Shown: positions 24,308 to 39,800 of the stretch, one piece after another
Numbering within the stretch: position 1 is the stretch's first letter
How the letters are laid out: each line of letters starts with the position of its first letter
Origin: a virus
Taxonomy: Duplodnaviria; Caudoviricetes
IMG/VR virus record: IMGVR_UViG_3300020440_000001
Location: 1-44,041 of that record
DNA length: 44,041 nucleotides
Reading direction: 5' to 3' (one strand)
Position numbers and translations under genes: made by a program
The notes under the pieces: generated by a model
What the model saw: the letters and a program-made list of their open reading frames with translations, nothing else
What the model was told of the DNA's origin: nothing
The model's database searches: none

Positions 24308-24576
24308 CCCAACTTAACACCCCAAAATGCCTCGTATATTTTTGGGGGCTATGTATTACAAAAGCAGCCGGGGGGTCCGGTTCGGAGCGGGGGCGGCGGA
24401 TTCGTGTTTGGTCCCGTTCCTGCTCAGTCCCGGGGCCGCTGCAGGCCCTGCGGCAGGATTTGGGCGGGGCGTATCGGCACGGTTGCGCCCCCGTGCGCTG
24501 CAGTTACTGCAGCAGCAGCCCAACGCAGGAGCCGCAGCCGCGCCGGGGCATTCAAGAGACAGCAACAGGACCAAAT

Positions 24577-24632
24577 CCAACCCCGGCAGCAAGCCCAACC
24601 CCGGCAGCCGTCCCAACGCCAGCCCCAACCGC
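24577..24632. repeat. Imperfect 18-bp tandem repeats (CCAACCCCGGCAGC core) in the divergent intergenic region
   Basis: CCAAC starts at 24577, 24595, 24613 and 24625. The first two units share 14 identical bases. Confidence 0.55.
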
Positions 24633-24694
24633 TGCTGCAGTCTTATCGTCGGAAGATGCCAAAATGCGGCGGGGCGGGTGCAATATGCGGCAGC

Positions 24695-24755
24695 AAAATA
24701 TTTTGCAAAATTTCCTACATTGACTGTTGCAGGGGGGCGGATGTGTCGATACAGT
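24695..24755 (+). promoter_or_regulatory. sigma70-type early promoter with UP element
   Basis: TTGCAG (24727-24732), 17-nt spacer, TACAGT (24750-24755). A/T tract AAAATATTTTGCAAAATTT upstream in otherwise GC-rich DNA. Confidence 0.65.
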
Positions 24756-24761
24756 AGACGC

Positions 24762-24783
24762 GCCCCTTGGGGTTTCTTTGACA
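24762..24783 (+). promoter_or_regulatory. boxB/boxA-like antitermination element
   Basis: Short hairpin GCCCC-TT-GGGGT followed by TTTCTTTGACA, resembling rrn/nut boxA, right after the predicted transcription start. Confidence 0.4.
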
Positions 24784-25320
24784 TCTCGACCCATGACCGC
24801 GAGCAGTTGCGGGGGCGGCAGGCCACAAGCCGTCCTTCGGGGCACCCCCCGCTTCTGCAGACAATGTTGGGAACACCACCCCCGGACATTCACTGCAGAA
24901 TGGCCGGAAGTTGCAGCGGGCGGCACCCATAGCACAGTGCCACCGCCAACACGCATAAGTAGTCGAGACGCAACGGAGCCGCAGGCTCAAACGCCCGACC
25001 GATCCACCGCCACCCAACATTGGCAGGCATCCCGCGAGGATGCCGCAGCAGCCAATACGACCGGCGATACCCAAGGATTCGCGGGAAGCATTCAAGACCG
25101 AAGGCCGCAGGCATGCGAGCCTCATTCGGTCGAAACGACGAAACGCCCCCCGGGGCACGTGTTGGAATCCGCTACGGCAGGGGAAAGCGTTGGCCGTTGG
25201 AATACGGCACGGTGCACCGACTGTCGGATACGTCCGGGACAGTCGGAGCCGACACAAGAGACAACGCTGCAGGCGGGACGGAGTTAGCCGACTCTCCCAA
25301 AAAGCCTTAATTCGGATACC
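24762..25320 (+). ncRNA. Putative large structured non-coding RNA (~560 nt), class not recognised
   Basis: More than 15 nested helices, including perfect 10-, 9- and 7-bp stems and UUCG/UACG tetraloops. Overlapping ORFs have no RBS or protein-like character. Lies directly downstream of a promoter. Confidence 0.65.
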
Positions 25321-25344
25321 GGATCATTCAACCAACCAACCGAC

Positions 25345-25411
25345 GCCGCCGCCCCTTACCGGGGGCGGTTGGCTTTCCCCCTGCAATGCCGCAGGGGCAT
25401 CCAAAGGAGGG
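25345..25411 (+). promoter_or_regulatory. Two-hairpin leader motif, copy 1, plus RBS
   Basis: GCC-GCCGCCCC-T-TACC-G-GGGGCGGT-T-GGC, then TTTC, then hairpin CCCCTGC/GCAGGGG and CAAAGGAGGG. Confidence 0.6.
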
Positions 25412-25417
25412 TTTAAC

Positions 25418-25714
25418 ATGACCCGAAAAGATTTCCAATTGATTGCCGATGCATTGGCATGGGCTACCCCAGTCATCGACATTTCCGAGCCGGTCGATGC
25501 CCGGACAACGGGGATGATTGCAACGTGGGTGGCATCCGTTAATGAAATGGCGTCGCACCTGCGAAACGACAATCCGCGATTCGACATGGACCGATTCTTC
25601 AAAGCGTGCACGATAAACACGTCTTGGTGCAATCGCTTCGCTATCAGCCTGCCGATGACCAATTCGTATGGAAGAATCGACTGGCTGCCCGCACATGAGC
25701 CGGTGCAAGCCTAA
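25418..25714 (+). CDS. Early phage protein of the MTRKDF..IA...NPRFD..RF..AC family (98 aa)
   Basis: Strong AAGGAGG RBS before ATG 25418. Recurrent phage motif. Confidence 0.8.
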   Translation: MTRKDFQLIADALAWATPVIDISEPVDARTTGMIATWVASVNEMASHLRNDNPRFDMDRFFKACTINTSWCNRFAISLPMTNSYGRIDWLPAHEPVQA

Positions 25715-25721
25715 CCACCCA

Positions 25722-25856
25722 CCCGCAGCCCCTACCGGGGCTGTTGGGCTTTCACTGACACCCGTTGTCAGTTTGCAGCAGCAGCCGCTTGCACCGTGCA
25801 GGCAATGCTGCTAAGATTCGCAAGCCGGGCTAGTCCGGCAGTATTTCAAAGGAGGG
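25722..25856 (+). promoter_or_regulatory. Two-hairpin leader motif, copy 2, plus further hairpins and RBS
   Basis: CCC-GCAGCCCC-TACC-GGGGCTGT-T-GGG, then CTTTC, then ACTGACA/TGTCAGT. Further stems (e.g. GCCGG/CCGGC 25824-25839) and CAAAGGAGGG. Confidence 0.6.
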
Positions 25857-25860
25857 CAAC

Positions 25861-27489
25861 ATGCCCAAGATTCGCAAAAAGTCAACCGCTTCCTATCGTG
25901 CAGACGTTCGCAGTCTGCCCAACTACAGCGGCACCGCATGGAACGATCTCCGTGCAGCCGAGTGTCGGCAGGTGCTAACGATGTCGCAATTCTGCGGCCT
26001 GCGAGACGCACACTTATTGCGCGTCATTATGGCCCGTCCGCTCGGCTATTGGCCCAAGAATATGACCAAGGGCAGCGGCAGCGGAGTAGGGCAGAAGCCT
26101 ATCCCGGGCCAAGCCCCCACCGCTGAACAGCAAGAATGGATGCGGAAGCGCCGTGATGGGACGGGCGTGCCTTCCAGCCTGCTGCGGAAGTGCGGCGTGC
26201 TTGACGCACCGCTTGACGCTATCGCCAAGTCGAGCACCCGCTCATTCGGCTCGGCTGCAGCCAACAATGTCGAGCAGGGCAGCGAATCCGGCGGTGCACC
26301 CGAGCAGGAATCTGCCCCGGCTCCCGGCAACGGTGAGGGTGGCGGCGAGCCGACATCCGAGAAAATGCTTGAGGCTGAGCAGCAGCGGATTTATGCAGCC
26401 GAAAGGCGAGAGAATGCAGCCGCAGCACGTGCAGCAGCAGCCACAGCCATTGAGCAGGGCAATATGGCAGAAGCAGCCGAGCAGGCCAACCACGCAGTCC
26501 ACGAAGAAAAGGTTGCCGAGCAGAACGAACGTTGTGCCGAGAGTCTTGAGGCTGAGGCCAAGGCCGAAGCAGAAGCAGAAGCAGCAGCAGCAGCCGAAGC
26601 AGCAGCAGCCGAGCAGCGTGCAGCGGCTGCAGCCAAGACGGGCTGGTTTGCCGTCCTGCAGGAAGCGCGCAAGCGTGCCGATCAAGACCCCGATGGTGGG
26701 CGGGTCATCTCAACCCGCACCATGGGCGGCGTTGCCCGCATGGTTGCCGATGGTGCAAGCCGTGCACAGGTCATCGACGCCCTCACGCAATCGTGGGAGC
26801 CGGAAGAAATCGCCAAGGTCTACGGGCACATTGATGAGGGTGCTGCGGTTGCTGAACGCCGACGTGACCGTCAACCGCTGCAGCCCATTGGCGACTGGCA
26901 GCACGTGATCGACGATGCGGTGCAGCGTTGCCCCACCAACCTGCTCGACTTCCCACACGATCAACTGCCCAACATGCTCGACCGACTGCAGCACGGGCAA
27001 GTGTGGATTGTCGGCCCGACCGGCTCGGGCAAGACGTACGCCGCTAAGCAGGCTGCGGCGGTGCTCGATCAACCCTGCAATCTTGTGTCCTGCGGTGAGG
27101 AATTGATGCTGCAGCAATTGGTGGGTGCACGTGATGCCCACGGTGTGTTCCACACCGGCCCATTGCTGGATGCATACGAGAATGGCGGCATCATCATCCT
27201 TGACGAATTCGACAAGTGTGACCCCGGTGTGTCGGGTGCATGCAATGCGTTCCTCAACCGTGACCCCGAGATTGCAGTCACCGACCGAGCCGAGCAGCCG
27301 GTTGCCAAGATGCACCCCGACTTCCGGGTGGTCATTGCAACCAACACGTTCGGCAACGGCTCGGATGGGCAGTACCTTGTGCAGCAGCAGTCACTCGACT
27401 TGGTTGCACGCTTCGAGCACCCCGGTCTGCAGATGTTCGTCGGCTACTCCGATGCAGTCGAGCGCAACATCCTTGGGGAGATTGCCTAA
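25861..27489 (+). CDS. MoxR/CbbQ/CobS-like AAA+ ATPase (542 aa) with long N-terminal extension
   Basis: Walker A GPTGSGKT (27013-27036), Walker B IIILDEFD, sensor I VIATNTFG, ARF arginine finger. AAGGAGG RBS. Confidence 0.88.
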   Translation: MPKIRKKSTASYRADVRSLPNYSGTAWNDLRAAECRQVLTMSQFCGLRDAHLLRVIMARPLGYWPKNMTKGSGSGVGQKPIPGQAPTAEQQEWMRKRRDGTGVPSSLLRKCGVLDAPLDAIAKSSTRSFGSAAANNVEQGSESGGAPEQESAPAPGNGEGGGEPTSEKMLEAEQQRIYAAERRENAAAARAAAATAIEQGNMAEAAEQANHAVHEEKVAEQNERCAESLEAEAKAEAEAEAAAAAEAAAAEQRAAAAAKTGWFAVLQEARKRADQDPDGGRVISTRTMGGVARMVADGASRAQVIDALTQSWEPEEIAKVYGHIDEGAAVAERRRDRQPLQPIGDWQHVIDDAVQRCPTNLLDFPHDQLPNMLDRLQHGQVWIVGPTGSGKTYAAKQAAAVLDQPCNLVSCGEELMLQQLVGARDAHGVFHTGPLLDAYENGGIIILDEFDKCDPGVSGACNAFLNRDPEIAVTDRAEQPVAKMHPDFRVVIATNTFGNGSDGQYLVQQQSLDLVARFEHPGLQMFVGYSDAVERNILGEIA

Positions 27490-27605
27490 TGCACCGTCAC
27501 AAGACCAACGGCCAACGCCGCACCGTCGTCAATTGGGGCGGCGGTGGCAAGCCCAAACGATCCAAGTCCAAGTCCAACCCCAAGCCAAGGAGGCACAAGA
27601 AATGA
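27489..27605 (+). CDS. 38-aa highly basic peptide MHRHKTNGQRRTVVNWGGGGKPKRSKSKSNPKPRRHKK
   Basis: Hand-translated. Fills the gap exactly, with TAATG and ATGA couplings. Confidence 0.5.
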   Translation: MHRHKTNGQRRTVVNWGGGGKPKRSKSKSNPKPRRHKK

Positions 27606-28492
27606 TTGACCATTACAACATCGACCGCAATGCGGCACCCGGATCTATCCCACACCGCAAGAATCGGGGCACCCCCGGCAGCGGGTATATCGTCCGGCAT
27701 TGGGATAACAGTGCCGACCTCATTCACTGCAGTGAACGCTTCGACTTCCAGCCCGGGCACAAGCACGTCAAGACCGAGCGCGAGTGGTGTCTTGGCGAGC
27801 ACGCCGATGAGCCCACGGCCAAGGCCGCGCTGTCTGCCGGGGACGTGCATGATTCCACCATGCAAATGTACACCGATGCCCGCAAGCGCTTCAGTGGTGC
27901 ATTTGCCAAGGTGACGGGCGAGCATGCCAAGGTATCGGGCAAGCGGCGCAAGCGGCGCAACCCCTACGCTGGGCAACTGAACGTGCAGCGGTTCCTTGCA
28001 GGGGATGCCAAGCCCTTCACTCAGCGCAGCCGTCGCACCCAATCACCCAAGATCCGCATCGGATTCCGCAACAACGGCAACGGCCATGTCGATTCAGCTC
28101 AAATGGCGCAGTGTGCGGCCAATGCTGCAGCGGTTGCACAACTGCTCTTCGACAAGGGCTTTGCTGTTGATGTCTCTGCTCTCATCGGCACAAAGATCAA
28201 CGGCGTGTTCGACTGCGACATCGTGCGGCTGCACACTGCAGGGCACCGGCTCGATGCCAAGCGGCTGCTATCCATTGGCCACCCGGGCATGCACCGAGTG
28301 TGGGCGAGGGACATCCGAGCGCAGAACCATGACCAATCTGCCAGCGGGTTCGGCTCATCGGTCAACCCGCCGCATGATTTGATTGCCGAAAACTTCGACA
28401 TCTTTCTCAACATCGACGGCGAGCAGTCCGATGTAATCCAGCAAGTCGAGGGCCTGCTCGGCAAGATCAAGGAGGGCAAACTCAATGCTTGA
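27602..28492 (+). CDS. VWA-like partner of the AAA+ ATPase (296 aa)
   Basis: AAGGAGG RBS, ATG 27602. G.LNV.RFLAG..KPF, L...G..V.V and HP.M.R motifs typical of phage MoxR-associated VWA-like proteins. MIDAS appears degenerate. Confidence 0.65.
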   Translation: MIDHYNIDRNAAPGSIPHRKNRGTPGSGYIVRHWDNSADLIHCSERFDFQPGHKHVKTEREWCLGEHADEPTAKAALSAGDVHDSTMQMYTDARKRFSGAFAKVTGEHAKVSGKRRKRRNPYAGQLNVQRFLAGDAKPFTQRSRRTQSPKIRIGFRNNGNGHVDSAQMAQCAANAAAVAQLLFDKGFAVDVSALIGTKINGVFDCDIVRLHTAGHRLDAKRLLSIGHPGMHRVWARDIRAQNHDQSASGFGSSVNPPHDLIAENFDIFLNIDGEQSDVIQQVEGLLGKIKEGKLNA

Positions 28493-28787
28493 ATTAGAAT
28501 GGGATGACTGGTGCAGATACCTGTCCATCCAAAAGACCAAGAAGGCGCACGACTGCGTGCAAGCCATCACTCTCCCGGTGTACCACGTGCCCCGGGAGGT
28601 GATGGACCAGCGTGATCTAAGGGCCACTTACTATTGGGAAGATTGCCCGGACCATGCATCCACCAGCGACTACTGGTCGTGGTGCCTAGAACGTGGGCAC
28701 AACCTTGTATCCGAGGGGTTGAACCCCACGGCGGCGCATGCTACAATCAACCAACAAAGGAGGCACCCATGCCCAAAATCAAAGTGA
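28485..28787 (+). CDS. Hypothetical early protein (100 aa)
   Basis: GGAGG RBS; overlap-coupled. Confidence 0.55.
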   Translation: MLELEWDDWCRYLSIQKTKKAHDCVQAITLPVYHVPREVMDQRDLRATYYWEDCPDHASTSDYWSWCLERGHNLVSEGLNPTAAHATINQQRRHPCPKSK

Positions 28788-29077
28788 CAAAGAAACAGTA
28801 CGCCCAAGTAGTGGAAACGACCGTGGCCTACATCGAAGTTCCCGAGGGCCGTGACCCCAAGGACTTCATGGAAGACATCGACTGCGACATGCTCCACGAG
28901 GAGCCGCTACAGGCCGCCGAGGACGCCGCTTACATCCAGTACGACAATGATGACCCCGAGGACGGGCCAGTGGCCAGAGAGCGGGAAGTGTTTGTGGGCT
29001 CCGAACAATGCACCCGGGATTATGAGTGGTGCGACAACGTCTATAACGGCGACGAAGAAATGGAGGTGGTCGAATGA
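28769..29077 (+). CDS. Acidic early protein (102 aa)
   Basis: AAGGAGG RBS before ATG 28769. Very D/E-rich. Confidence 0.7.
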   Translation: MPKIKVTKKQYAQVVETTVAYIEVPEGRDPKDFMEDIDCDMLHEEPLQAAEDAAYIQYDNDDPEDGPVAREREVFVGSEQCTRDYEWCDNVYNGDEEMEVVE

Positions 29078-29145
29078 TTGACCCCACCTATCCCGATGAC
29101 CTTGATCCCAACAACCCCGAGAACTACGAGGAGATTTCCAAATGA
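29074..29145 (+). CDS. 23-aa acidic mini-ORF MIDPTYPDDLDPNNPENYEEISK
   Basis: GGAGG RBS at 29062-29066 and ATGA overlaps at both ends. Confidence 0.45.
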   Translation: MIDPTYPDDLDPNNPENYEEISK

Positions 29146-29777
29146 GTAAACCAGCACAATCCCTTACACACTACGTCGAGCACCTGATCGACAACGCATC
29201 CGAGTACCTTGACTTTCGTGACGTGCTCATCGCAGCAATGCACCTTGGCCTAGCCCAGCAATTCCGAGACAACGGGGGCAGCACCCCCGAGGAGGATGCC
29301 AAGGCTATGTTCAAACTGATGTCCGCACCTGACCATGTGAAGTGCGCGTACACAATCAACACGTTCGCGTCACTCATCGCCAGCCGTGACCGTTGCACCG
29401 CTCGCCAGCATGAGTCGTATGCCGACACCATGCGTGACTTCATTGCGGAGTCAAAGACTCGTGACGCTACGCCCGAGGAGATGCGTGAGCAACTTGGGCA
29501 TTGGATGCACAAGATGCAGCGGTTCGCAGCGGAGGATCAAGAGTCTCACGACTCAACAGCCAAGGTTGCGGTGGCGTCGGCAGCCAACAGTTTCTCCGAC
29601 TTCACCATGGCTTGCAAGGATCACCTTGCGCACGTGCTGGCGCAGTACGCTGCGAACCACGTGCGTGAGGCCGAGGATATTGATACTGATCGAATGATTG
29701 AAGGGGCGAAGGTCGCCCACGATGAAGCCCAGCACCACGTCGAAGTGGTGCGCATTCTTATGGAGGGAAACCAATGA
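29142..29777 (+). CDS. Hypothetical all-helical early protein (211 aa)
   Basis: GAGGAG RBS; coupled ORF. Confidence 0.7.
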   Translation: MSKPAQSLTHYVEHLIDNASEYLDFRDVLIAAMHLGLAQQFRDNGGSTPEEDAKAMFKLMSAPDHVKCAYTINTFASLIASRDRCTARQHESYADTMRDFIAESKTRDATPEEMREQLGHWMHKMQRFAAEDQESHDSTAKVAVASAANSFSDFTMACKDHLAHVLAQYAANHVREAEDIDTDRMIEGAKVAHDEAQHHVEVVRILMEGNQ

Positions 29778-30196
29778 ACATCGCAACTTTTATTGCAACT
29801 CTTGCAGCAAACAGTGAACTGGTTGCACCACCGTATGAGCACGCCCTTGAGCGTGCCATACACGTGGTGGAATCGAGCGGGCAACTGACCGGGGATCGTC
29901 CGATCCTTGGTGACTGGTGCCCACACCGTGGGGTCTACCTTTCACGGGGCCCCCTGCAAATTAGTGAAGCGGCGTGGATCGACGCCAGCATGCCCGGCAA
30001 GTACGAAGATGTTGACGATCTGCAGTACAGCCTGCGGGTATTCCGCAGGTACATGGCAAGGTACGCAACCGAGCGCAGGCTCGGGCGCAAGCCAACGCTA
30101 GAAGATCAAGCCCGTATCTGGAATGGTGGCCCCAACGGCTACAAGCGTGCCGCCACCAATGGTTATTGGAGCAAAGTGAAGGAGGCCCTCAAATGA
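29774..30196 (+). CDS. Invertebrate-type (destabilase-like) lysozyme (140 aa)
   Basis: AI..VES, GD...S.GPLQIS...W.DA and ARIWNGGPNG......YW.KV signatures. Confidence 0.8.
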   Translation: MNIATFIATLAANSELVAPPYEHALERAIHVVESSGQLTGDRPILGDWCPHRGVYLSRGPLQISEAAWIDASMPGKYEDVDDLQYSLRVFRRYMARYATERRLGRKPTLEDQARIWNGGPNGYKRAATNGYWSKVKEALK

Positions 30197-30870
30197 GCGC
30201 CGTCATCTATGCAAGAGTATCCCCACGCCCCGAGCCGGGGCACGCCAGCATCGCACTCCAAGTGGAGGAGTGCGAACGCTGGTGCGGGGAGAACAACGTC
30301 GTTGTCGATAGCATTCACACCGATCAAGGGTTTAGCGGTGCTGACCCTGATCGGCCCGGACTATGGGAGGCGGTGGATGAACTTGGCCGGGGCACCATCC
30401 TGCTGGTGCACAAGCTCGACCGTCTCGCACGTGATGTCTATCTTTCTGAAGGCATTCACCGTGAGGTTGAGAAGTGCCGCGCCCGTGTTCATGCGGTGCA
30501 CGGTGGTGCGGTGGAGAACACACCCGAAGGCAAGATGGTGCGGCAGATTCTCGACGCTGCTGCTGAGTATGAACGCCGGGTCATCAAGGCTCGCACGTCC
30601 GCAGCCATGAAGCGGCACCAACGTGAGGGCAGGCGTATGTCGAATCAGCCACCGTTCGGCATGATGCTTGACCCGGAAGATGCCGGGATGCTCATCGCCT
30701 GCCCGCATGAGCAGGCTGCGATCTCATTGGTCCACAACATGCGGGTCGCAGGCAAAGGGTACAAGGCCATTGCCAATTCCCTCAATCAGTCGGGGATCCC
30801 GGCTCGGGGTCGGCAGTGGTATGCGTCCTCTGTTCGTGCGATCCTTTCTCATCAGCACGTGCCTGCATGA
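30193..30870 (+). CDS. Serine recombinase (resolvase catalytic domain plus short C-terminal recombinase domain, 225 aa)
   Basis: IYARVS, D.G.SG...DRPGL, KLDRLAR, AEYER..I..RT, PFG and IA..LN..GIP..G..W motifs. GGAGG RBS. Confidence 0.92.
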   Translation: MSAVIYARVSPRPEPGHASIALQVEECERWCGENNVVVDSIHTDQGFSGADPDRPGLWEAVDELGRGTILLVHKLDRLARDVYLSEGIHREVEKCRARVHAVHGGAVENTPEGKMVRQILDAAAEYERRVIKARTSAAMKRHQREGRRMSNQPPFGMMLDPEDAGMLIACPHEQAAISLVHNMRVAGKGYKAIANSLNQSGIPARGRQWYASSVRAILSHQHVPA

Positions 30871-31174
30871 TGCGGGCTAGGTCGGGCAAGTGGGTGGCCC
30901 TGCACAGGGTCATCCACTGTCCGCCGTTTGATCTCATAAATACCACAGGCGTGAGTCCATCCTTGGCATCCGACTCCGCCTGCTCCAAGAATCGTTCCGC
31001 TGCTATGCGTTGAACGAACTTGACCTCAACCCACAACTCAGCATCGACAACTACATCAGGATCAATTGCTCCGCTGGATTGACGCGAGCGGTGTGCAGAG
31101 AATCCGAATTGCTCCAGCAGTTTGCAAACTTCTCGCTCGCCACGCTTGCCCTTCTCTCTCTGCATCTTACCCAT
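30782..31174 (-). CDS. Holliday-junction-resolvase-like PD-(D/E)XK nuclease
   Basis: MGK.QR.KGKRGERE...PDV.....VEVK motif. Start ATG 31174. Confidence 0.75.
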   Translation of the reverse strand: MGKMQREKGKRGEREVCKLLEQFGFSAHRSRQSSGAIDPDVVVDAELWVEVKFVQRIAAERFLEQAESDAKDGLTPVVFMRSNGGQWMTLCRATHLPDLARIMQARADEKGSHEQRTHTTADPEPGSPTD

Positions 31175-31316
31175 CGGGCTTGTCCGGATGGTACACCACG
31201 ACTGTTGCACCACACTCGGCACAGTGCAGGTTCGTCTCGATCAGGTAATCATCTTCTGGCTCTGCATCATGGTCCCCGCCCCATATCAATTCGCCTTGGC
31301 AAAGGTAGCAATTCAT
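31167..31316 (-). CDS. 49-aa zinc-ribbon protein MNCYLCQGELIWGGDHD...NLHCAECGATVVVY
   Basis: Hand-translated. ATGA overlap; CxxC...CxxC; ELIWGGDHD motif recurrent in aquatic phages. Confidence 0.75.
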   Translation of the reverse strand: MNCYLCQGELIWGGDHDAEPEDDYLIETNLHCAECGATVVVYHPDKPDG

Positions 31317-31753
31317 TTGATCTCTCCGAAGTGTGAATTAGGAATCATGTAGCACGGCTCGATGTCGCCGCCGTCTCTAGTTTGCACCGTGCGTCCGCCG
31401 TGCACCAACTTGGCGTGCAGGTGTATGTCCCCAAGCCGTGCATAGTGCAGGCGTCCATCGTTGGTGGCCACCACAAACAGGGTTGGCAAACCAAGTGCGT
31501 CTGCGTAGTTTGCAGCAGTGAGAACTTTGCTCATGGATATCATTACGGTGGGGTACTGACCCCATCGCATGTGCCTCGCCTTGATCTCCACGAACCCAGC
31601 GATTTCCCCGTCACGCACCACTGCGTAGTCCATGCGGTAAGAGATGGGCAACTTCTGATACTCGCCACCCCACGCAGCAGCCAGCCTCTTGACTACCTGC
31701 TGCTCGTTGTTGCGGTCGCCGCTTGATTCATACATCGGCCTCGTCATCGTCAT
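31313..31753 (-). CDS. PD-(D/E)XK-fold nuclease-like protein
   Basis: RPMYE...D..NE, Y.MDY and FVEIK.R motifs. Confidence 0.7.
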   Translation of the reverse strand: MTMTRPMYESSGDRNNEQQVVKRLAAAWGGEYQKLPISYRMDYAVVRDGEIAGFVEIKARHMRWGQYPTVMISMSKVLTAANYADALGLPTLFVVATNDGRLHYARLGDIHLHAKLVHGGRTVQTRDGGDIEPCYMIPNSHFGEIK

Positions 31754-31919
31754 CCTCCTCTTCTACTGATCCATCGGTGTCCTCGTACTCATTCCAAACG
31801 TCAAGAGTCACCCGGAGCATGACACCCATCAGGGCGTACACATCCATGTCATCGAACTCAACCGTCCAGTATTTGATACGGCCCATGATCTCTTCATACA
31901 GTTTGTCTGCGCTGTTCAT
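31728..31919 (-). CDS. Small acidic protein (63 aa)
   Basis: ATGA-coupled to primase; acidic tail. Confidence 0.6.
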   Translation of the reverse strand: MNSADKLYEEIMGRIKYWTVEFDDMDVYALMGVMLRVTLDVWNEYEDTDGSVEEEDDDDEADV

Positions 31920-32722
31920 ACGTTGCTTGCCTGCTCAATCAATATGTCCAACTGCTGCCGGGACAACCCGCCAACTACCCATTCTTTTGCATCAGTACAT
32001 GAGCCACGTGGCTCCACGATCTTGACCTGCTTGGTCTTCACCTTCAGGGTCTTGGCCACCGACTCTGCACCGTCGATGCCGGGCTTGTCCTTGTCGGGGA
32101 TGAGCACGATCTGGTTCTTCCAGCTCACCAACTCATATAGATACTTGGTGCCACCGTTACAGGATGGCCTACCCACCACGTTGTACCCAAGTGTGTGCAA
32201 CGCTGCCGCATCTGTTGGCCCTTCTGCCACAAGTAGCAAGCCACTTGAACAGTCTGCACCGTGCATGAACAAGCCCGACCTGCTGCCCTTGACCGACAAC
32301 TTGCGACCATTGGGGTATCGCAGCCGCACGCCGATCACCTTCCCACTTGCATCGTGCATGGGAAAAGTGTACGCACCCTTGGCTTGGCTCCACCCCATGC
32401 GGAAAGCACGAAGTGAATCTTGCGGCAACTGCAGGTCGTTCGCCATGAACTCCCACTGGTGTGGTGCCATGGCCTGTTCACACTTCAGCACGCCAGCCTC
32501 CCAGTCAATGTTGCATTCCTCCTGCACCGGCAGTGCTGGTACAGGTGGGGCAAACATCTCTCCGCTTGGTCGGTGCAGCCAGCCCGCATCACCAAGGCTT
32601 CTTTCCGACGGAACCCTCGGGCAGATCACCGCCGTCCCGTCTTTGCTCACCATGCACCAATCTGGTTTGTTGCATATCGGGCACGGATTTGTCTTGCTCA
32701 CTCTGATCCATTCCGAACTCAT
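31916..32722 (-). CDS. DNA primase (Zn-binding domain plus TOPRIM, 268 aa)
   Basis: PCPIC.KPDWC...VIC.R zinc domain, FPM.D..G.VIG...R, VAEGPTDAAAL and PDKD.PG..GA. Confidence 0.88.
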   Translation of the reverse strand: MSSEWIRVSKTNPCPICNKPDWCMVSKDGTAVICPRVPSERSLGDAGWLHRPSGEMFAPPVPALPVQEECNIDWEAGVLKCEQAMAPHQWEFMANDLQLPQDSLRAFRMGWSQAKGAYTFPMHDASGKVIGVRLRYPNGRKLSVKGSRSGLFMHGADCSSGLLLVAEGPTDAAALHTLGYNVVGRPSCNGGTKYLYELVSWKNQIVLIPDKDKPGIDGAESVAKTLKVKTKQVKIVEPRGSCTDAKEWVVGGLSRQQLDILIEQASNV

Positions 32723-32924
32723 TGTCGATCATGTCCTCCGGGATGCCATGACTGCGCATCCAAACGCGGACGTCCTCGATCAAGACCCGCCGGTGCCCGC
32801 TGCCCGGTAGTCGATATCCCTTTAGGTTGCCACGGTCAATCTCTCGGATCACGGTCTGCTGCGAGCAGCGTGCAAGCTCTGCGATTTCACCAGTGGTCAG
32901 GTAGTCACGTTCATTCGTACTCAT
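32589..32924 (-). CDS. Excisionase/MerR-like (HTH_17) DNA-binding protein
   Basis: YLTTGEIAELARCSQQTVIREIDRGNLKGYRLPGSGHRRV...MRSHGIP. The tail overlaps primase by 134 nt. Confidence 0.85.
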   Translation of the reverse strand: MSTNERDYLTTGEIAELARCSQQTVIREIDRGNLKGYRLPGSGHRRVLIEDVRVWMRSHGIPEDMIDNEFGMDQSEQDKSVPDMQQTRLVHGEQRRDGGDLPEGSVGKKPW

Positions 32925-33216
32925 TGAAGTCAATGCCTCTTTGTTCTAGTTGTATCCACCTGTTTTTCCCATCTATTCTCCGGCGTATTGCACCGTGCAA
33001 ACGCCTGTGTTTGTAGTGCACATCCTGCGTAATGATCAACGTCAAGAAGCGGGACAGTGAACCTTTGTTTGGATCAAACCTGCGGTCGTATGCAGGCCGT
33101 GCAATTTGGTAGAACTCACTGACAATCTCGTCCACCTCCCACAATGGGAAGCGGTGGCTGTATCTCTGTGCAAGGAAATACAGTAGCCCGAGGTGTTCAT
33201 CTAGTGGGTGACTCAA
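32911..33216 (-). CDS. Sigma-70 region-2-like protein (101 aa)
   Basis: HLGL...LA.RY......DEIVSE......AY.RRFDP.KGS...F pattern. No region 4. TTG start. Confidence 0.55.
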   Translation of the reverse strand: MSHPLDEHLGLLYFLAQRYSHRFPLWEVDEIVSEFYQIARPAYDRRFDPNKGSLSRFLTLIITQDVHYKHRRLHGAIRRRIDGKNRWIQLEQRGIDFNEYE

Positions 33217-34837
33217 TCTTCCATCCGTTGTCCGCTAGGTCTTGGATCATCCTTGCCGCTACCGCCGAGGACACATCGGTGGGAAGACCATACTTCTTGA
33301 GCAGCGCCTCTTGCTTGAGAGAAGCCTTGCCCAGTTTACGCCGCATCATAATCTGTCCAATCAGAGAGCCTGCTTGCTTGCGGGTCAACCCTTCAGGGTC
33401 AACACCTTGGTTAGCAAGGAAAGTCATCTGCTTGGTGGTAGCCATGTCTACTTTCTGTGACGGCTGCACCGGGGCGTAGCCCATGTCATCAAACGGACTG
33501 ATGCTTCGGCTGGTGTAGGTCGAAGCCAACTTCAACTTGGCCCGCTTCAACTTCTCCTGCTCGGCTGCCTCTGCAGATTCCTTCGCGGCTTCCTCTTGAA
33601 TGCGGGCCTTCTCCATTTCTTCGATTGGGTCAAGCAAATCACCTGCGGTAGCCATCTCTGCTGCTCGTGCGGGCAAGTCCTTTGCATCGTCGCCAGCCAA
33701 CACATCAAAAGTGGTAATAAGCCTGTGCCTACCAGCGTTGCCCTTGAAGTCGAGCACCATCAGGTCAGGTTTATTCGACGCTGCTATGAGATCCCTGCGG
33801 ATCGTCGCTGACGAATCGTATGGGAGGGAAACCGTCGGCCTCGTCCCCCGCCCTACGCATTGCGTGTACTTCGCTCGAACCTTGGTCGCCGTCATCATGC
33901 ACACTGCAGCGACGGGCGGCGCGTCGAAGCCCTCCACTAGCACTTGCACATTCACTACAAACTGAACTGTCCCGCCCGCAAATTGCGCAAGCAATTCTCT
34001 TCGCTCTTCGGATGGCGTCTTCCCAGATACCCATGCTGCTGCTCCCGGCTTATGCCTGTTGATGATGTCGCAGATCAGGCGGGCCTGCCGCACTGTGCCT
34101 GCAAAAATAATTGTTTGTCTGTCCCCAACCAACTCCAGTGTGGGGTGCACCATGCCGTGCAGGTTCTTCTCTTCTTCCAGAATCTCAGCCAACTCTGCGC
34201 CGCACAACTCGCCGCCAACTGTCTTCACCTTAGAGTAGTCAAGCGTGCCAACCTGCACGAACCGCTGCTTGATAGGTACAAGCCAGCCGTCATTGATGCC
34301 GTCCAAGATGTTGTATTCGTACGAGCAGGTGTCGAACACGTTGTGCATACCGACCCTATCTCCACGGTCAGGTGTGGCTGTCACCCCTACTAACTTCAGG
34401 CGTGGGTTGCCATCCTGCATGTACTTGATGAACTCACGGTACGACGAGCTTGCCGCGTGGTGTGCCTCGTCAATCAGCAGCAGGTTGAAATCCTTGGGGT
34501 CAAACTTAGTGTACCGCTTGATGCCCAGCGGCCCGGACACCAACGACTGGATACTTGCAATGACAATCTTGTCAAAGCACTCGCTCTTCTGCTCTGCTTT
34601 CTCAATGCCGGGGATGACCCCGATGGTATCCATGATCCTCTTCTCGGGCTGACGGATCAACTCATCACGATGCGCAACAAGCATGGCCCTGCCGCCACGT
34701 GATATGCACGATCGGATCATCTCGATCATCACCACGGTCTTGCCAAGACCAGTAGCCATGCTGATCAGCGTGCTGCTGTGCTCAACAAGATCAGAGCGAC
34801 AGGCGGCGACTGCCTCCTCTTGGTAATCACGGAGCAT
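33197..34837 (-). CDS. Superfamily II (DExH) helicase (546 aa)
   Basis: LRDYQ Q-motif, ATGLGKT, LIDEAHH, TATP, EGFD.P and Q.VGRG.R. AGGAG RBS before ATG 34837. Confidence 0.92.
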   Translation of the reverse strand: MLRDYQEEAVAACRSDLVEHSSTLISMATGLGKTVVMIEMIRSCISRGGRAMLVAHRDELIRQPEKRIMDTIGVIPGIEKAEQKSECFDKIVIASIQSLVSGPLGIKRYTKFDPKDFNLLLIDEAHHAASSSYREFIKYMQDGNPRLKLVGVTATPDRGDRVGMHNVFDTCSYEYNILDGINDGWLVPIKQRFVQVGTLDYSKVKTVGGELCGAELAEILEEEKNLHGMVHPTLELVGDRQTIIFAGTVRQARLICDIINRHKPGAAAWVSGKTPSEERRELLAQFAGGTVQFVVNVQVLVEGFDAPPVAAVCMMTATKVRAKYTQCVGRGTRPTVSLPYDSSATIRRDLIAASNKPDLMVLDFKGNAGRHRLITTFDVLAGDDAKDLPARAAEMATAGDLLDPIEEMEKARIQEEAAKESAEAAEQEKLKRAKLKLASTYTSRSISPFDDMGYAPVQPSQKVDMATTKQMTFLANQGVDPEGLTRKQAGSLIGQIMMRRKLGKASLKQEALLKKYGLPTDVSSAVAARMIQDLADNGWKIESPTR

Positions 34838-35129
34838 CCCGCAACTCCTGAGGAACGAGGACCTTGATACGGAACTCGTTAGTCCATCCACTACCGCCGC
34901 ACGCCCGGCAGCCGCGCCCGTCGCAGAACTTGCAAAGAGTTTCAGGCCGTGCCCAACTGAGCAATTGCATCAGTCGGTGGTGCACAAGTTTGAACTCTTC
35001 CGCGTCCTGTCTGGAGAACATGGCGGGGGCATGCTTGTGTAGCTTCTCCGCCTGCTCGTCCATATTGTCCAGCCGTTGGATCATATAGTCCACGTACTGT
35101 CTTACTTTGTCTCCATCCATCTTATCCAT
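34827..35129 (-). CDS. Hypothetical protein with CxxCxGxG/CxxCxGxG zinc finger (~100 aa)
   Basis: CKFCDGRGCRACGGSG. First gene of the replication operon. Confidence 0.7.
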   Translation of the reverse strand: MDKMDGDKVRQYVDYMIQRLDNMDEQAEKLHKHAPAMFSRQDAEEFKLVHHRLMQLLSWARPETLCKFCDGRGCRACGGSGWTNEFRIKVLVPQELRDAP

Positions 35130-35197
35130 GCCGGGCAAAGTACCAAGTCTTACAGCAGGCGTGAGGATTATTTTCCAATTTTTCTACCCACCCCCCC

Positions 35198-35256
35198 TTG
35201 ACAAGTTGTACCCCTGCTCTGGTATAACCCCTAACAGCACCCCAGTCATAAGGAGG
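35198..35256 (+). promoter_or_regulatory. sigma70-type promoter and RBS for the recombination operon
   Basis: TTGACA 35198-35203; TGG-TATAAC (extended -10, 35223-35228; the 19-nt spacer is long); AAGGAGG 35250-35256. Confidence 0.55.
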
Positions 35257-35262
35257 AATCTA

Positions 35263-36093
35263 GTGCTACAGCAGTTAGATGAAGATGTTTATCGTGGCCT
35301 GAAACACATGAACCAATCGGTTCTGAAGAATGGCCTGAGATCAATGCAGCACCTGCGCGCAGCAGTAAATGGTGAGCTGCCTTACAAGGAGACACCTGCT
35401 CTTGCCTTCGGGACACTGGTACACACCGTGGTTCTTGAGCCGGACTTGGCAACCGAGATGTATGCCCTTGCTCCAAAGGTTGACCGTCGAACCAAGGCGG
35501 GTAAGCAAGAGTGGGAAGACTTCTCCCGTGTCCATGCTGACAAGACGCCAGTGACATCCGAGGACTGGAACAAGGCGTGGGCAATGCGTGAACAGGTCAT
35601 GGCTCACCCATCAGCAGCACACATTCTCAACCGCAAGAATGCCAAGGTTGAGCACGCTGCTATCTGGGCTGACCAAGAGACTGGTATCTCATGCAAAGCC
35701 AAGATCGACTTCTTTGCCCCGGGCAAGGGAAAGCAGAAGCCAATCATCGCAGACCTCAAGACCACTATGGATGCAGGGCCACGCTCGTTCGCCAAGTCCA
35801 TTGCGTCTTTCAACTATCACATGCAGCAGGCTTTCTATACAGATGGGGTAGCCCAATGCGAGAACAGACACTGCCGATTCATCTTCATTGCTGTTGAGAA
35901 AGAAGCCCCGCACGCTGTCGGTGTGTATGAACTGGGCGAAGAGGCAGCAGAGGCCGGAAGAAAAACTTACAGAAATCTGCTAAGGCAGTGGAAATCTTGT
36001 CTTGAGTCTGGTACATTTACTGGATACGGGGACGGAGTAGAAACTCTGGACTTGCCTGAGTGGGCCAAGTCCGACCCCAACCTAATCATTTGA
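35263..36093 (+). CDS. RecE/exonuclease VIII-like PD-(D/E)XK nuclease (DUF3799-like)
   Basis: S.LK, TPAL.FGT..H..VLEP, DRRTKAGK, CKAKID, DLKTT, Y..Q.AFY and FIAVEK.AP motifs. GTG start after RBS. Confidence 0.9.
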   Translation: MLQQLDEDVYRGLKHMNQSVLKNGLRSMQHLRAAVNGELPYKETPALAFGTLVHTVVLEPDLATEMYALAPKVDRRTKAGKQEWEDFSRVHADKTPVTSEDWNKAWAMREQVMAHPSAAHILNRKNAKVEHAAIWADQETGISCKAKIDFFAPGKGKQKPIIADLKTTMDAGPRSFAKSIASFNYHMQQAFYTDGVAQCENRHCRFIFIAVEKEAPHAVGVYELGEEAAEAGRKTYRNLLRQWKSCLESGTFTGYGDGVETLDLPEWAKSDPNLII

Positions 36094-36103
36094 GGATCAT
36101 CCC

Positions 36104-36472
36104 ATGGATATTCAATCAGCATTCCCATCCCGCTACATGAAAGCCGCCGATCTGCCTCAGCCCAAGACCCTCACCATCCGTGGTGTTGAGATTGAGCGAA
36201 TGCAGGATGGCACCCAGAAGCCAGCCGTGTCGTTCCACGAGTCGGAACAACTGTTCATCTTGAACAAGACCAATGCCAATGCACTCGAAGCGTTGTATGG
36301 TCGAGATACAAACTTCTGGGCCAACCAGCGGGTCACTCTCTATCAAGCGGAAGCCGAGTTCCAAGGCCGACGCATCCCCTGCATTCGTTGCCAACAGCCT
36401 GAAGCGGCACCAGCCACACCGGCACCAGCCGCTGCACCTTCTCCCACAAATCAAGGCGAAGTTCCTTTCTAA
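36104..36472 (+). CDS. Single-stranded DNA-binding-like protein (122 aa)
   Basis: FPS.Y.KAADL...LNKTNA..L...YG.DT..W family. Pro/Ala linker and EVPF C-terminal tip. Confidence 0.7.
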   Translation: MDIQSAFPSRYMKAADLPQPKTLTIRGVEIERMQDGTQKPAVSFHESEQLFILNKTNANALEALYGRDTNFWANQRVTLYQAEAEFQGRRIPCIRCQQPEAAPATPAPAAAPSPTNQGEVPF

Positions 36473-36491
36473 TCTCCTTGCTATCTCCCCA

Positions 36492-36524
36492 GTCCCCGGG
36501 GGTTATCCACCTACCCCCGGGGAC
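36492..36524. other. GC-rich 11-12-bp inverted repeat with a DnaA-box-like sequence in the loop
   Basis: GTCCCCGGGGG (36492-36502) pairs with CCCCCGGGGAC (36514-36524). TTATCCACC lies between them. Confidence 0.6.
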
Positions 36525-36532
36525 ACTTCTCT

Positions 36533-36757
36533 ATGACAGAACCAGTAGCGGCGTGGCATAAAAGGCTAAGCGAAGACGAGCTTGCCAAAGTGACAATCGA
36601 CCCTGATTGTCCTCGGTGCGGATCTGACCAGCAAAGTCATATCGGCTCCTACATACAAGGTTACTCTCGCAAGAACGTAATTGAAACCGTATACTTTACT
36701 TGCAAAGAATGCGGCCATACACACAAAGCGCACGAGTTAGTGTGCGACAGAATGTGA
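36533..36757 (+). CDS. Zinc-ribbon protein (74 aa)
   Basis: CPRCGS...YFTCKECGH. Weak RBS. Confidence 0.55.
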   Translation: MTEPVAAWHKRLSEDELAKVTIDPDCPRCGSDQQSHIGSYIQGYSRKNVIETVYFTCKECGHTHKAHELVCDRM

Positions 36758-36769
36758 CCTCCCTCCTTG

Positions 36770-36806
36770 GCCCCCAGCCGTTTCGCATAGGCTGGGGGCT
36801 TTTTTT
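36770..36806 (+). terminator. Rho-independent terminator between convergent operons
   Basis: GCCCCCAGCC (36770-36779) / GGCTGGGGGC (36790-36799) followed by a T7 run. Confidence 0.85.
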
Positions 36807-39800
36807 ATTTCTCAAGCTTTTCGCGCTGGAGGGCACGAGTTGCGGCCCGCATAATCTGGACACGCACTGCTGCCTCACCCATCTGCCCAAGCGGGACATC
36901 TCTGTCTGTGAACCGAAGAGTTTCCAGTTGCTTGTCGAGCGCACCTTCTTTGATGTCGTACGGCCTGAATATGCCGTCCACCAAATCAGCTGACAGATTC
37001 TCACTGACATAGTTTGCCTGCAGAATTTGCCTGAGCTCACCATCAGTGATGCCAAACGCACGCATCCTGCGCACGTGCCCGAACAGTTGCTTCTGCAGTG
37101 CACGGCGGTTGCCGTTGTAGTATTGCACGGCTGCCTGCAAATCTTCCCGAGACACCTCGCCCTGCCGTTGTGCAACACGGTTCATTCGTGCACGCAACTC
37201 ACGGTCTAGCCGATTGAACTCAGACACCTTGAACATGAACGCCTGATTCGGGTTGATGGTTTCAAACTTGAAGCCGCTGAGCAACTGCATGATTTGCGAG
37301 CCCATGTCATATCGCTTGCCGTAGTCATCAACGTGCCCATCTGCTGCAAGAATCAAACGCTCAACAGTCTTGACGGTACCCGGCATGGTTGCACCCATGA
37401 GGTGCTGGATAGCCTGACTGATCTGCGACGCCTTGGTTGAGCCCGGGTCATACAGCGGACGCCCAAGTTCATCTTGCCCACGAACGATGTCGTAGATTGC
37501 AGAGTAGCCAATCTCCTTGCCGATAAACGGGCGGAAGATATTCTCAACTGCAGAGATCAACCGATCCTGCACAGCTTCGTCATCTCGCGCAAGCAGTGCA
37601 AGGAATGGCTGCCGGAAGTAAACGAACGGATCAACGTACCCGTAGTTTACGAATGAAAGATCGCCACCTTCTTGACGGTAGAACAAGAGCACCGAGTCCT
37701 TGTTCCAAAATGGCAGCATGCCACGGACGGCGCGCTCTTCTTCTTCATCTACACCCGAGATGCTGCGCATTGCAGCAGCCAAGATTGTTGGCAGCACCAT
37801 CATCATTCCCATGCCAGCCACGCGCTGCTGTCCAATCTTCCGCTTCATTGGGTTGTCGCTTGCGAGCTCCGCTCTTGCAATGTTGATGCGCCCAATAGAT
37901 GTGCGGATCAACTCTGAAGTAAAGGACGGGAACGTGCCAAAGAATGGAATGTTGCGCAGAGCCTTGACTGCCTCAGGCACACGGTCATAGTTAGGCAGCG
38001 TGTTGGACACAATCTCTGCAGCCTCGACCGCCATTGCATCCTCACTCTTCGTGCCGCCGTAAGCTGCACGCAACCGTGCAAGCTCGATGTCGTAGGCCAG
38101 CACCTTGAAGAAGTCATCTTCTGCCTTGTAGGTAGATGCAAATCCATCAAGAGTTTTCTTGGTCAGACGGCCTGCTTCGCCAAGCCCTTCCATGAATTGC
38201 TCCATCGTGCCATCGCCACCACGCTGCCACATGGCTTCGACTTCGCGGAAGTCACTGGTGTTGACAACACCAAGCTCAAGCAGATCCTGATACCTACGTT
38301 GCGACTCTGCACGGTTGACACCAAAGATGCCGTTGCCTGCAGTAACAGTGAAGTAGGCTTCCTTGATTGACTTGCCTGAGTTAAAGATGTCAGTCAGGTA
38401 CCCGTTGGCAGCCATGAAGGAAAGGTTGCCGACCACGTTGCGCACCTGTGTCTCAACAGACAGCACGGTCTTGCCGAACTTGACGGCAGAGTTGAACCGC
38501 AACGCCAGCCGGATGAGCGGGTTCATTGCAGAGTCGTTGTTCGCAGCTTTAGTAATCAGCTCGATAGACTCTTTCATTTCAGGCGTGGCATACAAACCTC
38601 TGAACGGACTGACTGGATCAGACACGTCAAGGTTGTCAAATGGCACCAGACCTTCTGGCCGGTTGGGCTCAGTGCCATAGAAGAGGAACCCTTCTTTCAA
38701 GCCATTCTGCACCAGACTCTGATTGAACCTGAAAGTCTCCAGCGAACGGATCATCTTGGTGACTGAGTTGGCGTAGTTCACCATGGGGTCCGTGCCTTCG
38801 CCAAGGAATGCACGGTACGCCTGCACCAGTTCGTTGTTACCCTCGTAGTCAAACTGGTTGAGCTTGTCACGCTCACGCATCAAGCGCCCAGTCTTCCGCT
38901 CGTAGGTCTTACGCCTGATCTTCTTGGCGGCAAACAAATCATCAAGCTTGATCTGCTCTTCATCCAGAGCCGCGAGTTCCTTCTGCTTGTCCCGCTCAAC
39001 AAGTTTGCGACGCATGAAGATAGAGTTTGCAGCACCGTCACCCATGGCTGCAGCAAATGCCATAGGTGAATCACTACTGCTTGCACGGTACAAGATGTCA
39101 TCCATCAACTGGTTGATGACGGCACCGCGCTGCTCCACACCGATATGCCGTGGGTTGCGCTTGCCGTCAGGCAGGAACTGCGGTTCCTTTGCAGCCTGTT
39201 CAAAGAAATCTTTGTACGCATTATGCAGGGCCGCGCGCATCCTGCTGCGAACTTCAGGCTCTACCTTCTTCGACCAGTCTGGATCAGAGAATGCCTCATA
39301 CCTTCGGGTCATGTAGAAACCAATGTTGTCTTCGATGACACCAACCATCTCTTCAGACACCATGTCATTTTCATTTGCAATTCGTCTGGAGAGATTGTCA
39401 ATGTGCTGTCGCATGCTCTTGACAATTTCACGCATGTCTGGCGTGATGTTCATGGAGGTAGGCGCAGTGTCAATTTCGTGCACTGGCATCTGCAGCAACC
39501 TGTTGACATCACCCATTGCCTGCTCACGCTCAGAACCCTTGCGGAACTTCTTCGCAATGCCACGCCATACCTGTTGGTTGAGCTTGGTTGCACGGTCAAT
39601 CTCTGCACCGATCCTGCCATCTTTCTCAACAGACTTGCGGAGCACGGAAGCGGGGACGCCACGCTGGTACGTGAGGTTCTTGACGGAAAGTCGCTTGACT
39701 TTCTTTGCTACAGTCTTGAGCTCCTTGCTGGTCAGTGCAGCAACTTCGCTAAGACCACGACTGTATGCAATGTTGACATCGTTGGTCATGCGGCCATCGC

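Follow-up and report, generated by a model that had tools for sequence, protein, structure and literature searches.

Few RNA classes of phages and bacteria have been described that combine large size with great structural complexity, and the phage-borne ROOL and GOLLD families among them are still without a function. According to the accessible parts of their descriptions, ROOL RNAs are carried by phages, are about 580 nt long and form six multistem junctions with few universally fixed bases (PMC5737381, PMC12286853), GOLLD is a large ornate phage RNA with marine members, size variants above 800 nt and both conserved and variable parts (PMC12286853), and variable linkers occur in the two families (PMC12286853). 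The same literature, in its available text, describes large bacterial RNAs as often catalytic (PMC5737381). Other phage RNAs act in cis. As far as the accessible portions of the reports go, put suppresses both pausing and termination in the early genes of phages (PMC9378689), and the conAn2 regions, which span 260-600 bp, are much larger than put and poorly conserved in sequence, and need an upstream conAn1 gene (PMC8191782). Finally, a survey of IMG/VR, in its available parts, lists candidate structured RNAs of viruses and phages that are covarying, intergenic and 29-151 nt long (PMC10690425).

The window analyzed here, the whole stretch of 44,041 nucleotides, is a virus record of 44,041 bp that IMG/VR classes as complete with direct terminal repeats. 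From ~24270 the leftward arm carries the genes for structure and packaging (portal, large terminase, capsid), and the rightward arm from 25418 comprises a small gene, a CobS-like AAA+ gene, a lysozyme-like gene and a serine recombinase. In the space between, an earlier note had proposed an undescribed large structured plus-strand phage RNA heading the predicted early transcript, and covariation, the lack of a coding signal, a conserved promoter and the lack of any Rfam match support this proposal. Altogether, sequence comparison indicates that the element is a new family of large structured phage RNA, an object of a known kind that fails every Rfam model. The locus is laid out as follows.

24313-24355, no strand: conserved 43-bp DNA motif at the late-arm foot, immediately outside what is probably the genome end; in 6/6 relatives and in L001 and L031, with a variant in L068
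24351-24730, no strand: probable packaged-DNA end, putative short terminal repeat or pac-proximal region; non-coding sequence containing short internal repeats
24727-24755, plus strand: sigma70-type early promoter, TTGCAG-17-TACAGT (-35 at 24727-32, 17-nt spacer, -10 at 24750-55)
24762-25324, plus strand: large structured non-coding RNA of ~563 nt, with 26 predicted helices and six predicted multi-way junctions
25325-25376, plus strand: A/C-rich linker and GC hairpin (25345-73) with a 3-U tail, folding in 4/4 close sequences; candidate 3' end or processing site
25418-25714, plus strand: first early protein gene, 98 aa, of no family; RBS at 25403-10, codon periodicity p = 0.0005
25722-25860, plus strand: second hairpin copy and a structured leader (z = -4.06) that is also kept in L001 and L032
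25861-27489, plus strand: CobS-like AAA+ gene, with CobS-like and AAA_5 matches

The element is known from seven distinct sequences. Four are close, namely the window and the homologues L001, L031 and L032 (clade A), which were reached via neighboring proteins; L029 and L030 are identical to the window. The other three, L015, L016 and the complete genome G001 (the same as L021), form a distant clade with a terminase identity of 81-82%. The habitat is marine, as judged from the runs holding at least half of the window, small-share runs being left out, and the closest cultured terminase relative shares at most 26% identity. Because GTDB genomes with Planctomycetota labels account for 8 of the first 10 and 17 of the 53 terminase-bearing loci, and because a 343-aa phage protein (22207-23238, minus strand) resembles dockerin-bearing clusters from Planctomycetota and Bacteroidota (one cluster is mostly planctomycete), the host is probably a member of the Planctomycetota, which is a lead short of proof. 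This 343-aa protein is 77-82% identical in relatives, above its neighbors. Elsewhere, a 2,408-aa virion protein (36805-44031, minus strand) has a weak ART-PolyVal match (E = 1.4e-5, under the curated cut-off) and is possibly an injected polyvalent protein.

The strongest support for the RNA comes from covariation among the close sequences, in which the element is 82-90% identical pairwise. The pairs put to the test were the 93 of the first reading, fixed before any homologue was seen, hence the test is non-circular. Over the three relatives they give 279 cells, of which 211 are unchanged, 24 changed on both sides and still paired, 11 changed on one side and still paired, 21 broken and 12 gapped. 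The 24 two-sided compensatory changes compare with 3.3 expected and with a maximum of 11 in 5,000 column permutations, so that the covariation sought in homologues after the earlier note was indeed found. The window's own minimum-energy structure gives a similar result (22 two-sided changes versus 4.0 expected), and a consensus structure of 162 pairs keeps 98.6% of 638 cells paired, with two-sided changes in 24 pairs, although this structure comes from the very alignment on which it is tested and is in part circular. Helices that do not vary among the four sequences give no evidence of covariation. Hairpins are also cleanly lost or gained, by a 17-nt deletion and a 16-nt insertion in the close sequences and by a 108-nt insertion in G001, and conservation of the element (82-90%) exceeds that of the small gene (73-81%) and of the left gene (74%). 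On these comparisons, the fold of the element is under selection.

Folding energies point the same way. The plus strand of the window element reaches -228 kcal/mol (z = -3.57, with 0/100 shuffles as good), in line with the structured RNA that the earlier note had proposed to check by z-score, compared with z = -2.13 for the minus strand. With 20 shuffles each, the plus strands of the close relatives score z -2.7 to -3.2, in 4/4 close sequences z is lower for the plus than for the minus strand, and ten 560-nt windows of the genome set a plus-strand background of +1.2 to -2.5. The domains of the predicted structure, all on the plus strand, are the following.

24803-24858, plus strand: 5' branched domain, a long stem with two inner hairpins, showing wobble and compensatory changes
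24910-25178, plus strand: long-range helices 24910-18/25170-78 and 24946-53/25158-65 around the central domains, with alignment pair probabilities of 0.86 and 0.97
24976-24988, plus strand: optional hairpin, lost by the 17-nt deletion in 2/3 relatives and compensated in the third
24994-25085, plus strand: core domain common to the distant elements, with an invariant bulged helix, a covarying 4-bp helix (25008-11/25063-66) and inner hairpins
25096-25156, plus strand: two hairpins in the longest invariant runs, with the 16-nt insertion site (L031) between them
25186-25268, plus strand: 3' three-way domain whose 6-nt loop at 25198 and UNCG loop at 25229 are invariant; two-sided changes occur in five pairs
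25272-25324, plus strand: variable 3' hairpin (the most divergent, compensated) and a final invariant hairpin

The helix coordinates of the first reading were accurate (7/7 of those checked first were correct, and all 16 helices, making up the 93 pairs, were located), but two of its helices are probably wrong. The 24862/25013 helix, described as perfect and long-range, holds 9 of the 21 broken cells, with 3, 2 and 4 of its 10 pairs broken in the three relatives, and it overlaps a covarying helix at 25019-24/25051-56. The 25075/25165 helix holds 2 of the 21, has one pair broken in 2/3 relatives and competes with a core helix common to the distant phages. Of the UNCG loops claimed, the one at 25229 stands in 4/4 sequences, and the one at 24836 occurs in 2/4 only. 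The alignment instead favors the two long-range helices 24910-18/25170-78 and 24946-53/25158-65, absent from the first reading, which stay paired in 100% and 97% of cells; their only changes are one-sided and of the G-U type. Several of the six predicted junctions are supported by invariant pairs only, and at the 5' end an alternative four-way junction is indistinguishable in energy from the RNAalifold version. A single 4-bp pseudoknot candidate was found among the unpaired columns, four sequences giving this search little power. Since 67% of the unpaired columns are invariant, compared with 76% of the paired ones, the pattern suggests tertiary or ligand contacts. A UGGAA stretch recurs at 25162-68 and 25198-203 and is absent from the distant form; we take these stretches to resemble T-loops, as a lead only. 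A perfect 10-nt palindrome at 25210-25219, invariant in the four close sequences, could let copies of the RNA pair with each other.

That the element might instead be a hidden protein gene, or a GC-rich sequence folding by chance, is extremely improbable and already largely refuted. Stop-free minus-strand frames of 168-187 codons do run through all four close sequences and local 150-nt folding is modest in the 5' half, but the long frames are explained by the low T content (14%), the element has indels of 1, 16 and 17 nt that put its frames out of register, and none of the five ORFs overlapping it has a PHROG match. Variable sites are spread evenly over codon positions (50/44/47, p = 0.83), whereas the three flanking genes show clear codon periodicity (p = 0.0005, 7e-5 and 0.003); the coding-potential check proposed with the earlier reading went against a gene. 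The strand of that RNA was also read correctly, since among variable pairs G-U types outnumber A-C types 18 to 3 (a count in which two hand-set helices are displaced by one column) and the plus-strand fold is the better one in 4/4. The same two observations weigh against a role at the DNA level, in which single-stranded hairpins would serve ejection or packaging. Adjacency to the probable genome end and some perfect palindromes speak for such a role, which we consider very improbable, as the fold also begins at the predicted transcription start and is multi-branched over 270-420 nt. The element is thus, by these counts, non-coding and plus-stranded.

None of the RNA classes compared accounts for the fold. 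In Rfam the best match of the window has E = 0.79, far under the gathering scores, and neither close nor distant elements gave a useful match, the ROOL and GOLLD models included (relatives searched to E = 1, the window to E = 10 for ROOL); the novelty claimed for the RNA is thereby kept. The earlier note had seen no hallmark of tmRNA, RNase P or group I/II introns, and Rfam, ARAGORN (0 tRNA, 0 tmRNA) and a motif search agree: intron, RNase P and hammerhead hallmark motifs, taken from general knowledge, are lacking in the four close sequences, no interrupted gene surrounds the element and group I and group II intron features are missing, and RNase P has neither an Rfam match nor the conserved regions that form P4. 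A cobalamin riboswitch, tried on account of the CobS-like gene, found no Rfam match and no B12-box motifs. A CsrB-like GGA sponge was rejected, as each close sequence has 1-3 ANGGA motifs, mostly in predicted stems, and so was a group I P7-like reading of the distant core, the motif of which is not kept. Hence the "ribozyme-like fold" floated as a function finds no backing in a known ribozyme class. A new catalytic RNA, whether it processes itself or acts on other RNA, would suit a large multi-junction molecule with many invariant unpaired bases, large bacterial RNAs often being catalytic in the accessible part of that literature (PMC5737381), but with no ribozyme or intron match in Rfam, no hallmark motif in the four close sequences and no interrupted gene we hold it to be quite improbable.

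The position of the element bears directly on its role. Contigs start exactly at 24351 in runs X5, X6 and X7 (3/8 runs, from three studies), and sequencing depth past this point rises to 9.8 from 2.4-4.0 in X5 and to 10 from 3.4 in X7, X6 showing no clear rise; the roughly threefold depth in two runs extends to 24560 and 24730. The other 5/8 runs have no contig start at 24351, and contigs of two of these five span the site. Because the contigs of three studies start there and a conserved motif adjoins, we read 24351 as a physical genome end, probably either a pac site or the end of packaged DNA that bears a short terminal repeat. The motif at 24313-24355, a variant of which is kept in L068 at 65% TerL identity, would be a terminase site or a late promoter. 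No codon periodicity was detected in 24351-24730. Short direct repeats occupy 24400-24660, including a motif at ~24642-24655 that is common to the distant clade, where a related word occurs three times; these repeats are possible protein-binding sites in the terminal region.

If 24351 opens a terminal repeat, the promoter and the RNA are the first unique sequence at the left end. The promoter at 24727-24755 follows an AT-rich stretch, predicts a start at ~24762 and keeps its 17-nt spacer identical in 4/4 close homologues, although it was absent from the list of a strict consensus scan. The distant-clade element is headed by a promoter nearer the sigma70 consensus, and G001 has two further strong promoters downstream. 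The left end of T7 carries a terminal repeat, host-polymerase promoters and the anti-restriction gene 0.3. Our locus shares the order of probable genome end, host-type promoter and first product, but its first product would be an RNA, and by analogy with T7-type phages the left end would enter the cell first.

This location, a divergence point beside a probable genome end, would also suit a replication primer or R-loop RNA like ColE1 RNA II, priming near the genome end. ColE1 RNA II is about 555 nt long, close to the length of the promoter-driven element. The phage, however, encodes its own primase and helicase, cumulative GC skew has no clear turning point at the element, no AT-rich unwinding stretch lies downstream and the distant form is 0.9-1.0 kb long; we consider priming improbable.

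In L015, L016 and G001 the same slot holds a 0.9-1.0-kb gene-free stretch preceded by a strong sigma70 consensus. A profile built from the close four matches G001 with E = 2.7e-5 (search of 132 loci, 1.68 Mb), and the part common to both forms is ~100 nt, corresponding to 24994-25085, within which all four pairs of the 4-bp helix 25008-11/25063-66 change on both sides across the seven sequences. The distant form shows compensation of its own (12, 5 and 10 changes versus 2.4, 0.8 and 2.0 expected), and its conservation is uneven, with 94-97% in the 5' part, 58-83% in a variable stretch and 96-100% at the 3' end; structural genes of G001 match those of L015 and L016 at 83-84%, compared with 94-97% for the 5' part of the element. 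Folding energy is less uniform: the L015 and L016 elements are no more stable than their shuffles (z -0.17 and +0.06), and the G001 element (z = -2.99) includes a long inserted hairpin. This 108-nt insertion is an almost perfect inverted repeat of ~33 bp whose ends carry a short duplication, and looks like a miniature mobile element. The alignments thus indicate a second, larger form that keeps a ~100-nt core.

Beyond these seven sequences the family is, on present data, narrow. Searches of phages at 65% terminase identity or less and of host-class genomes gave no match to the element; a covariance model of the core recovered only its own training members in 100 sources (1.23 Mb), one match of E = 0.39 in five genomes and 0/151 in genomes of the putative host class, the last search having no positive control. 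BLAST of the element against 301 genomes of that class gave two short matches, rejected as CRISPR spacers because no repeat array flanks them, and GenBank phages gave only chance matches of 37 nt and 41 nt. Exact-motif scans of IMG/VR returned one relative and L004, the latter by a single motif with no wider similarity. Of the 15 loci found with the core pattern, 4 were known and 11 proved unlike the element on reading, and of 12 found with the terminus-motif pattern, 7 were known and 5 unrelated.

Other early-arm folds were also seen. L068 carries a different non-coding fold of ~440 nt (5135-5575, minus strand, z = -7.1) behind a 135-aa gene, which ends in a tRNA-like fold without a D arm and has no Rfam match at gathering score and none to the core model; three hairpin copies with the same loop-proximal sequence also lie in its early intergenic spaces (~6070, 5510 and 4220, minus strand), parallel to the window hairpins at 25345 and 25722. 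In L086, L079 and L085, more distant members of the family, strongly folded windows follow one another in the early direction upstream of TerL, where coding overlap is possible. The folding survey behind this last observation covered 17 loci besides the window; it failed to pick up the known L016 element and is insensitive.

Downstream of the RNA, the hairpin at 25345-73 was not scored as a terminator, and no canonical terminator follows the element. A second copy of this GC hairpin follows the stop codon of the next gene; because the same hairpin type closes both, the RNA and the gene look as if they were units of one transcript. The 98-aa product has no PHROG or Pfam match and 10 proteins at E <= 0.001, its own sequence included, and one X11 contig skips 25406-25677, most of its gene. 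The CobS-like protein has a long N-terminal part rich in alanine and glutamate, and the overlapping frame 27486-28492, whose start is probably later than that of the listed ORF, may encode its VWA-type partner, with no family match. Among the 20 runs listed, one is of RNA (a share of 0.05), with a single contig at 23500-24126; as contigs show presence and not absence, it is no evidence either way on transcription of the element.

Tentatively, and at less than even confidence, we favor a stand-alone RNA of the GOLLD/ROOL type, released from the early transcript and acting in trans on a host protein. Host RNA polymerase would transcribe it at once as the first early RNA, the hairpin at ~25345-25376 would allow its release from the early message, and the free RNA would act in trans as a compact protein-binding decoy or scaffold in host takeover, with the invariant core and the many invariant unpaired bases as binding surface and the peripheral hairpins exchangeable. 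Transcription, separate release, first entry into the cell and protein binding are steps that we infer. Counting for this reading are (i) the covariation (24 versus 3.3), the conservation above that of neighboring genes and the clean hairpin swaps, (ii) the conserved ends and variable stretch of the distant form, reminiscent of the variable linkers in the available account of ROOL and GOLLD (PMC12286853), (iii) the downstream gene, which differs in the distant clade and is skipped in the X11 contig, (iv) the hairpin type shared by RNA and next gene, and (v) a size and six junctions as in ROOL, in the accessible part of its description (PMC5737381). Against it count the lack of a canonical terminator, with downstream genes that seem to need read-through from the same promoter, the single 4-bp pseudoknot candidate and missing tRNA genes, unlike ROOL and GOLLD, in a sample of seven sequences, and the two of three distant elements that fold like shuffles.

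Read-through is the core of the main rival, a cis-acting antiterminator or elongation element that would bind the elongating host polymerase and carry it past early-arm hairpins and Rho sites, like HK022 put or conAn2. The element lies directly behind the first early promoter in both clades, without a terminator of its own, and is followed by short-U-tail hairpins and C-rich linkers; moreover, conAn2 regions are 260-600 bp long and poorly conserved (PMC8191782) and put acts in early genes (PMC9378689), as stated in the accessible parts of these papers. Its targets, however, are scarce: terminator-like sites in 24700-37000 number 8 versus 10.6 by chance, with only 2 on the plus strand of the early arm. 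In addition, G001 has its two extra downstream promoters, no conAn1-like gene is found, and the central helices close only after ~420 nt. We regard this mechanism as possible but rather unlikely.

A bolder extension of the trans-acting RNA, which we put forward as speculative and unlikely, would make an RNA-only host-takeover or anti-defense factor the first product of the family: a ~100-nt core in exchangeable scaffolds of 0.56-1.0 kb, delivered from the first unique DNA into a planctomycete cell, in the slot of an early anti-restriction protein. In any case, the place behind the first promoter at a probable genome end restricts the likely roles to taking over the host at once or controlling early transcription. 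The source is an uncultured phage group, probably of planctomycete hosts; the RNA can be made in vitro without the phage.

In the literature searched, outside subscription papers, no description of this RNA was found. The IMG/VR candidates resemble the element in being covarying, intergenic and of the same source but are, in the available text, only 29-151 nt long (PMC10690425); three supplements of that survey hold no match to two contig-id numbers and three motif strings, and a fragment of the element could be among its large alignments, which lay outside this comparison. HK022 put and conAn2, in their accessible descriptions, are comparable as structured nascent RNAs near the head of a long operon, conAn2 also in length (260-600 bp), and the element has the position of put just 3' of an early phage promoter; it differs from conAn in having no conAn1-like gene between promoter and RNA, and its early arm offers read-through targets only as a chance-level terminator count and two hairpins with 3-U tails. 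Like the element, ROOL is a phage-borne RNA of similar size (~580 versus 563 nt) with six junctions, few universally fixed bases and a variable linker; as far as its available description goes, ROOL has three pseudoknots and often lies beside tRNA genes, whereas the element has one 4-bp candidate (from four sequences of little power) in a genome with 0 tRNA genes, matches no ROOL model and sits behind the first early promoter at a probable genome end. GOLLD, in the accessible account, shares the size variants (compare the 0.9-1.0-kb form) and the combination of a conserved part with variable ones, but rises during lysis and conserves its 3' region, whereas the element has a central or 5' shared core, an early-type position, no Rfam match in either size form and no neighboring tRNAs. 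Members of ROOL and GOLLD are abundant discrete RNAs that assemble into multimers made of RNA only. Because both forms match no Rfam model, the element is not ROOL or GOLLD by those models, though by analogy it may work like them. Beside these two families, it adds a further one with covariation support, in two sizes whose small common core points to the seat of activity.
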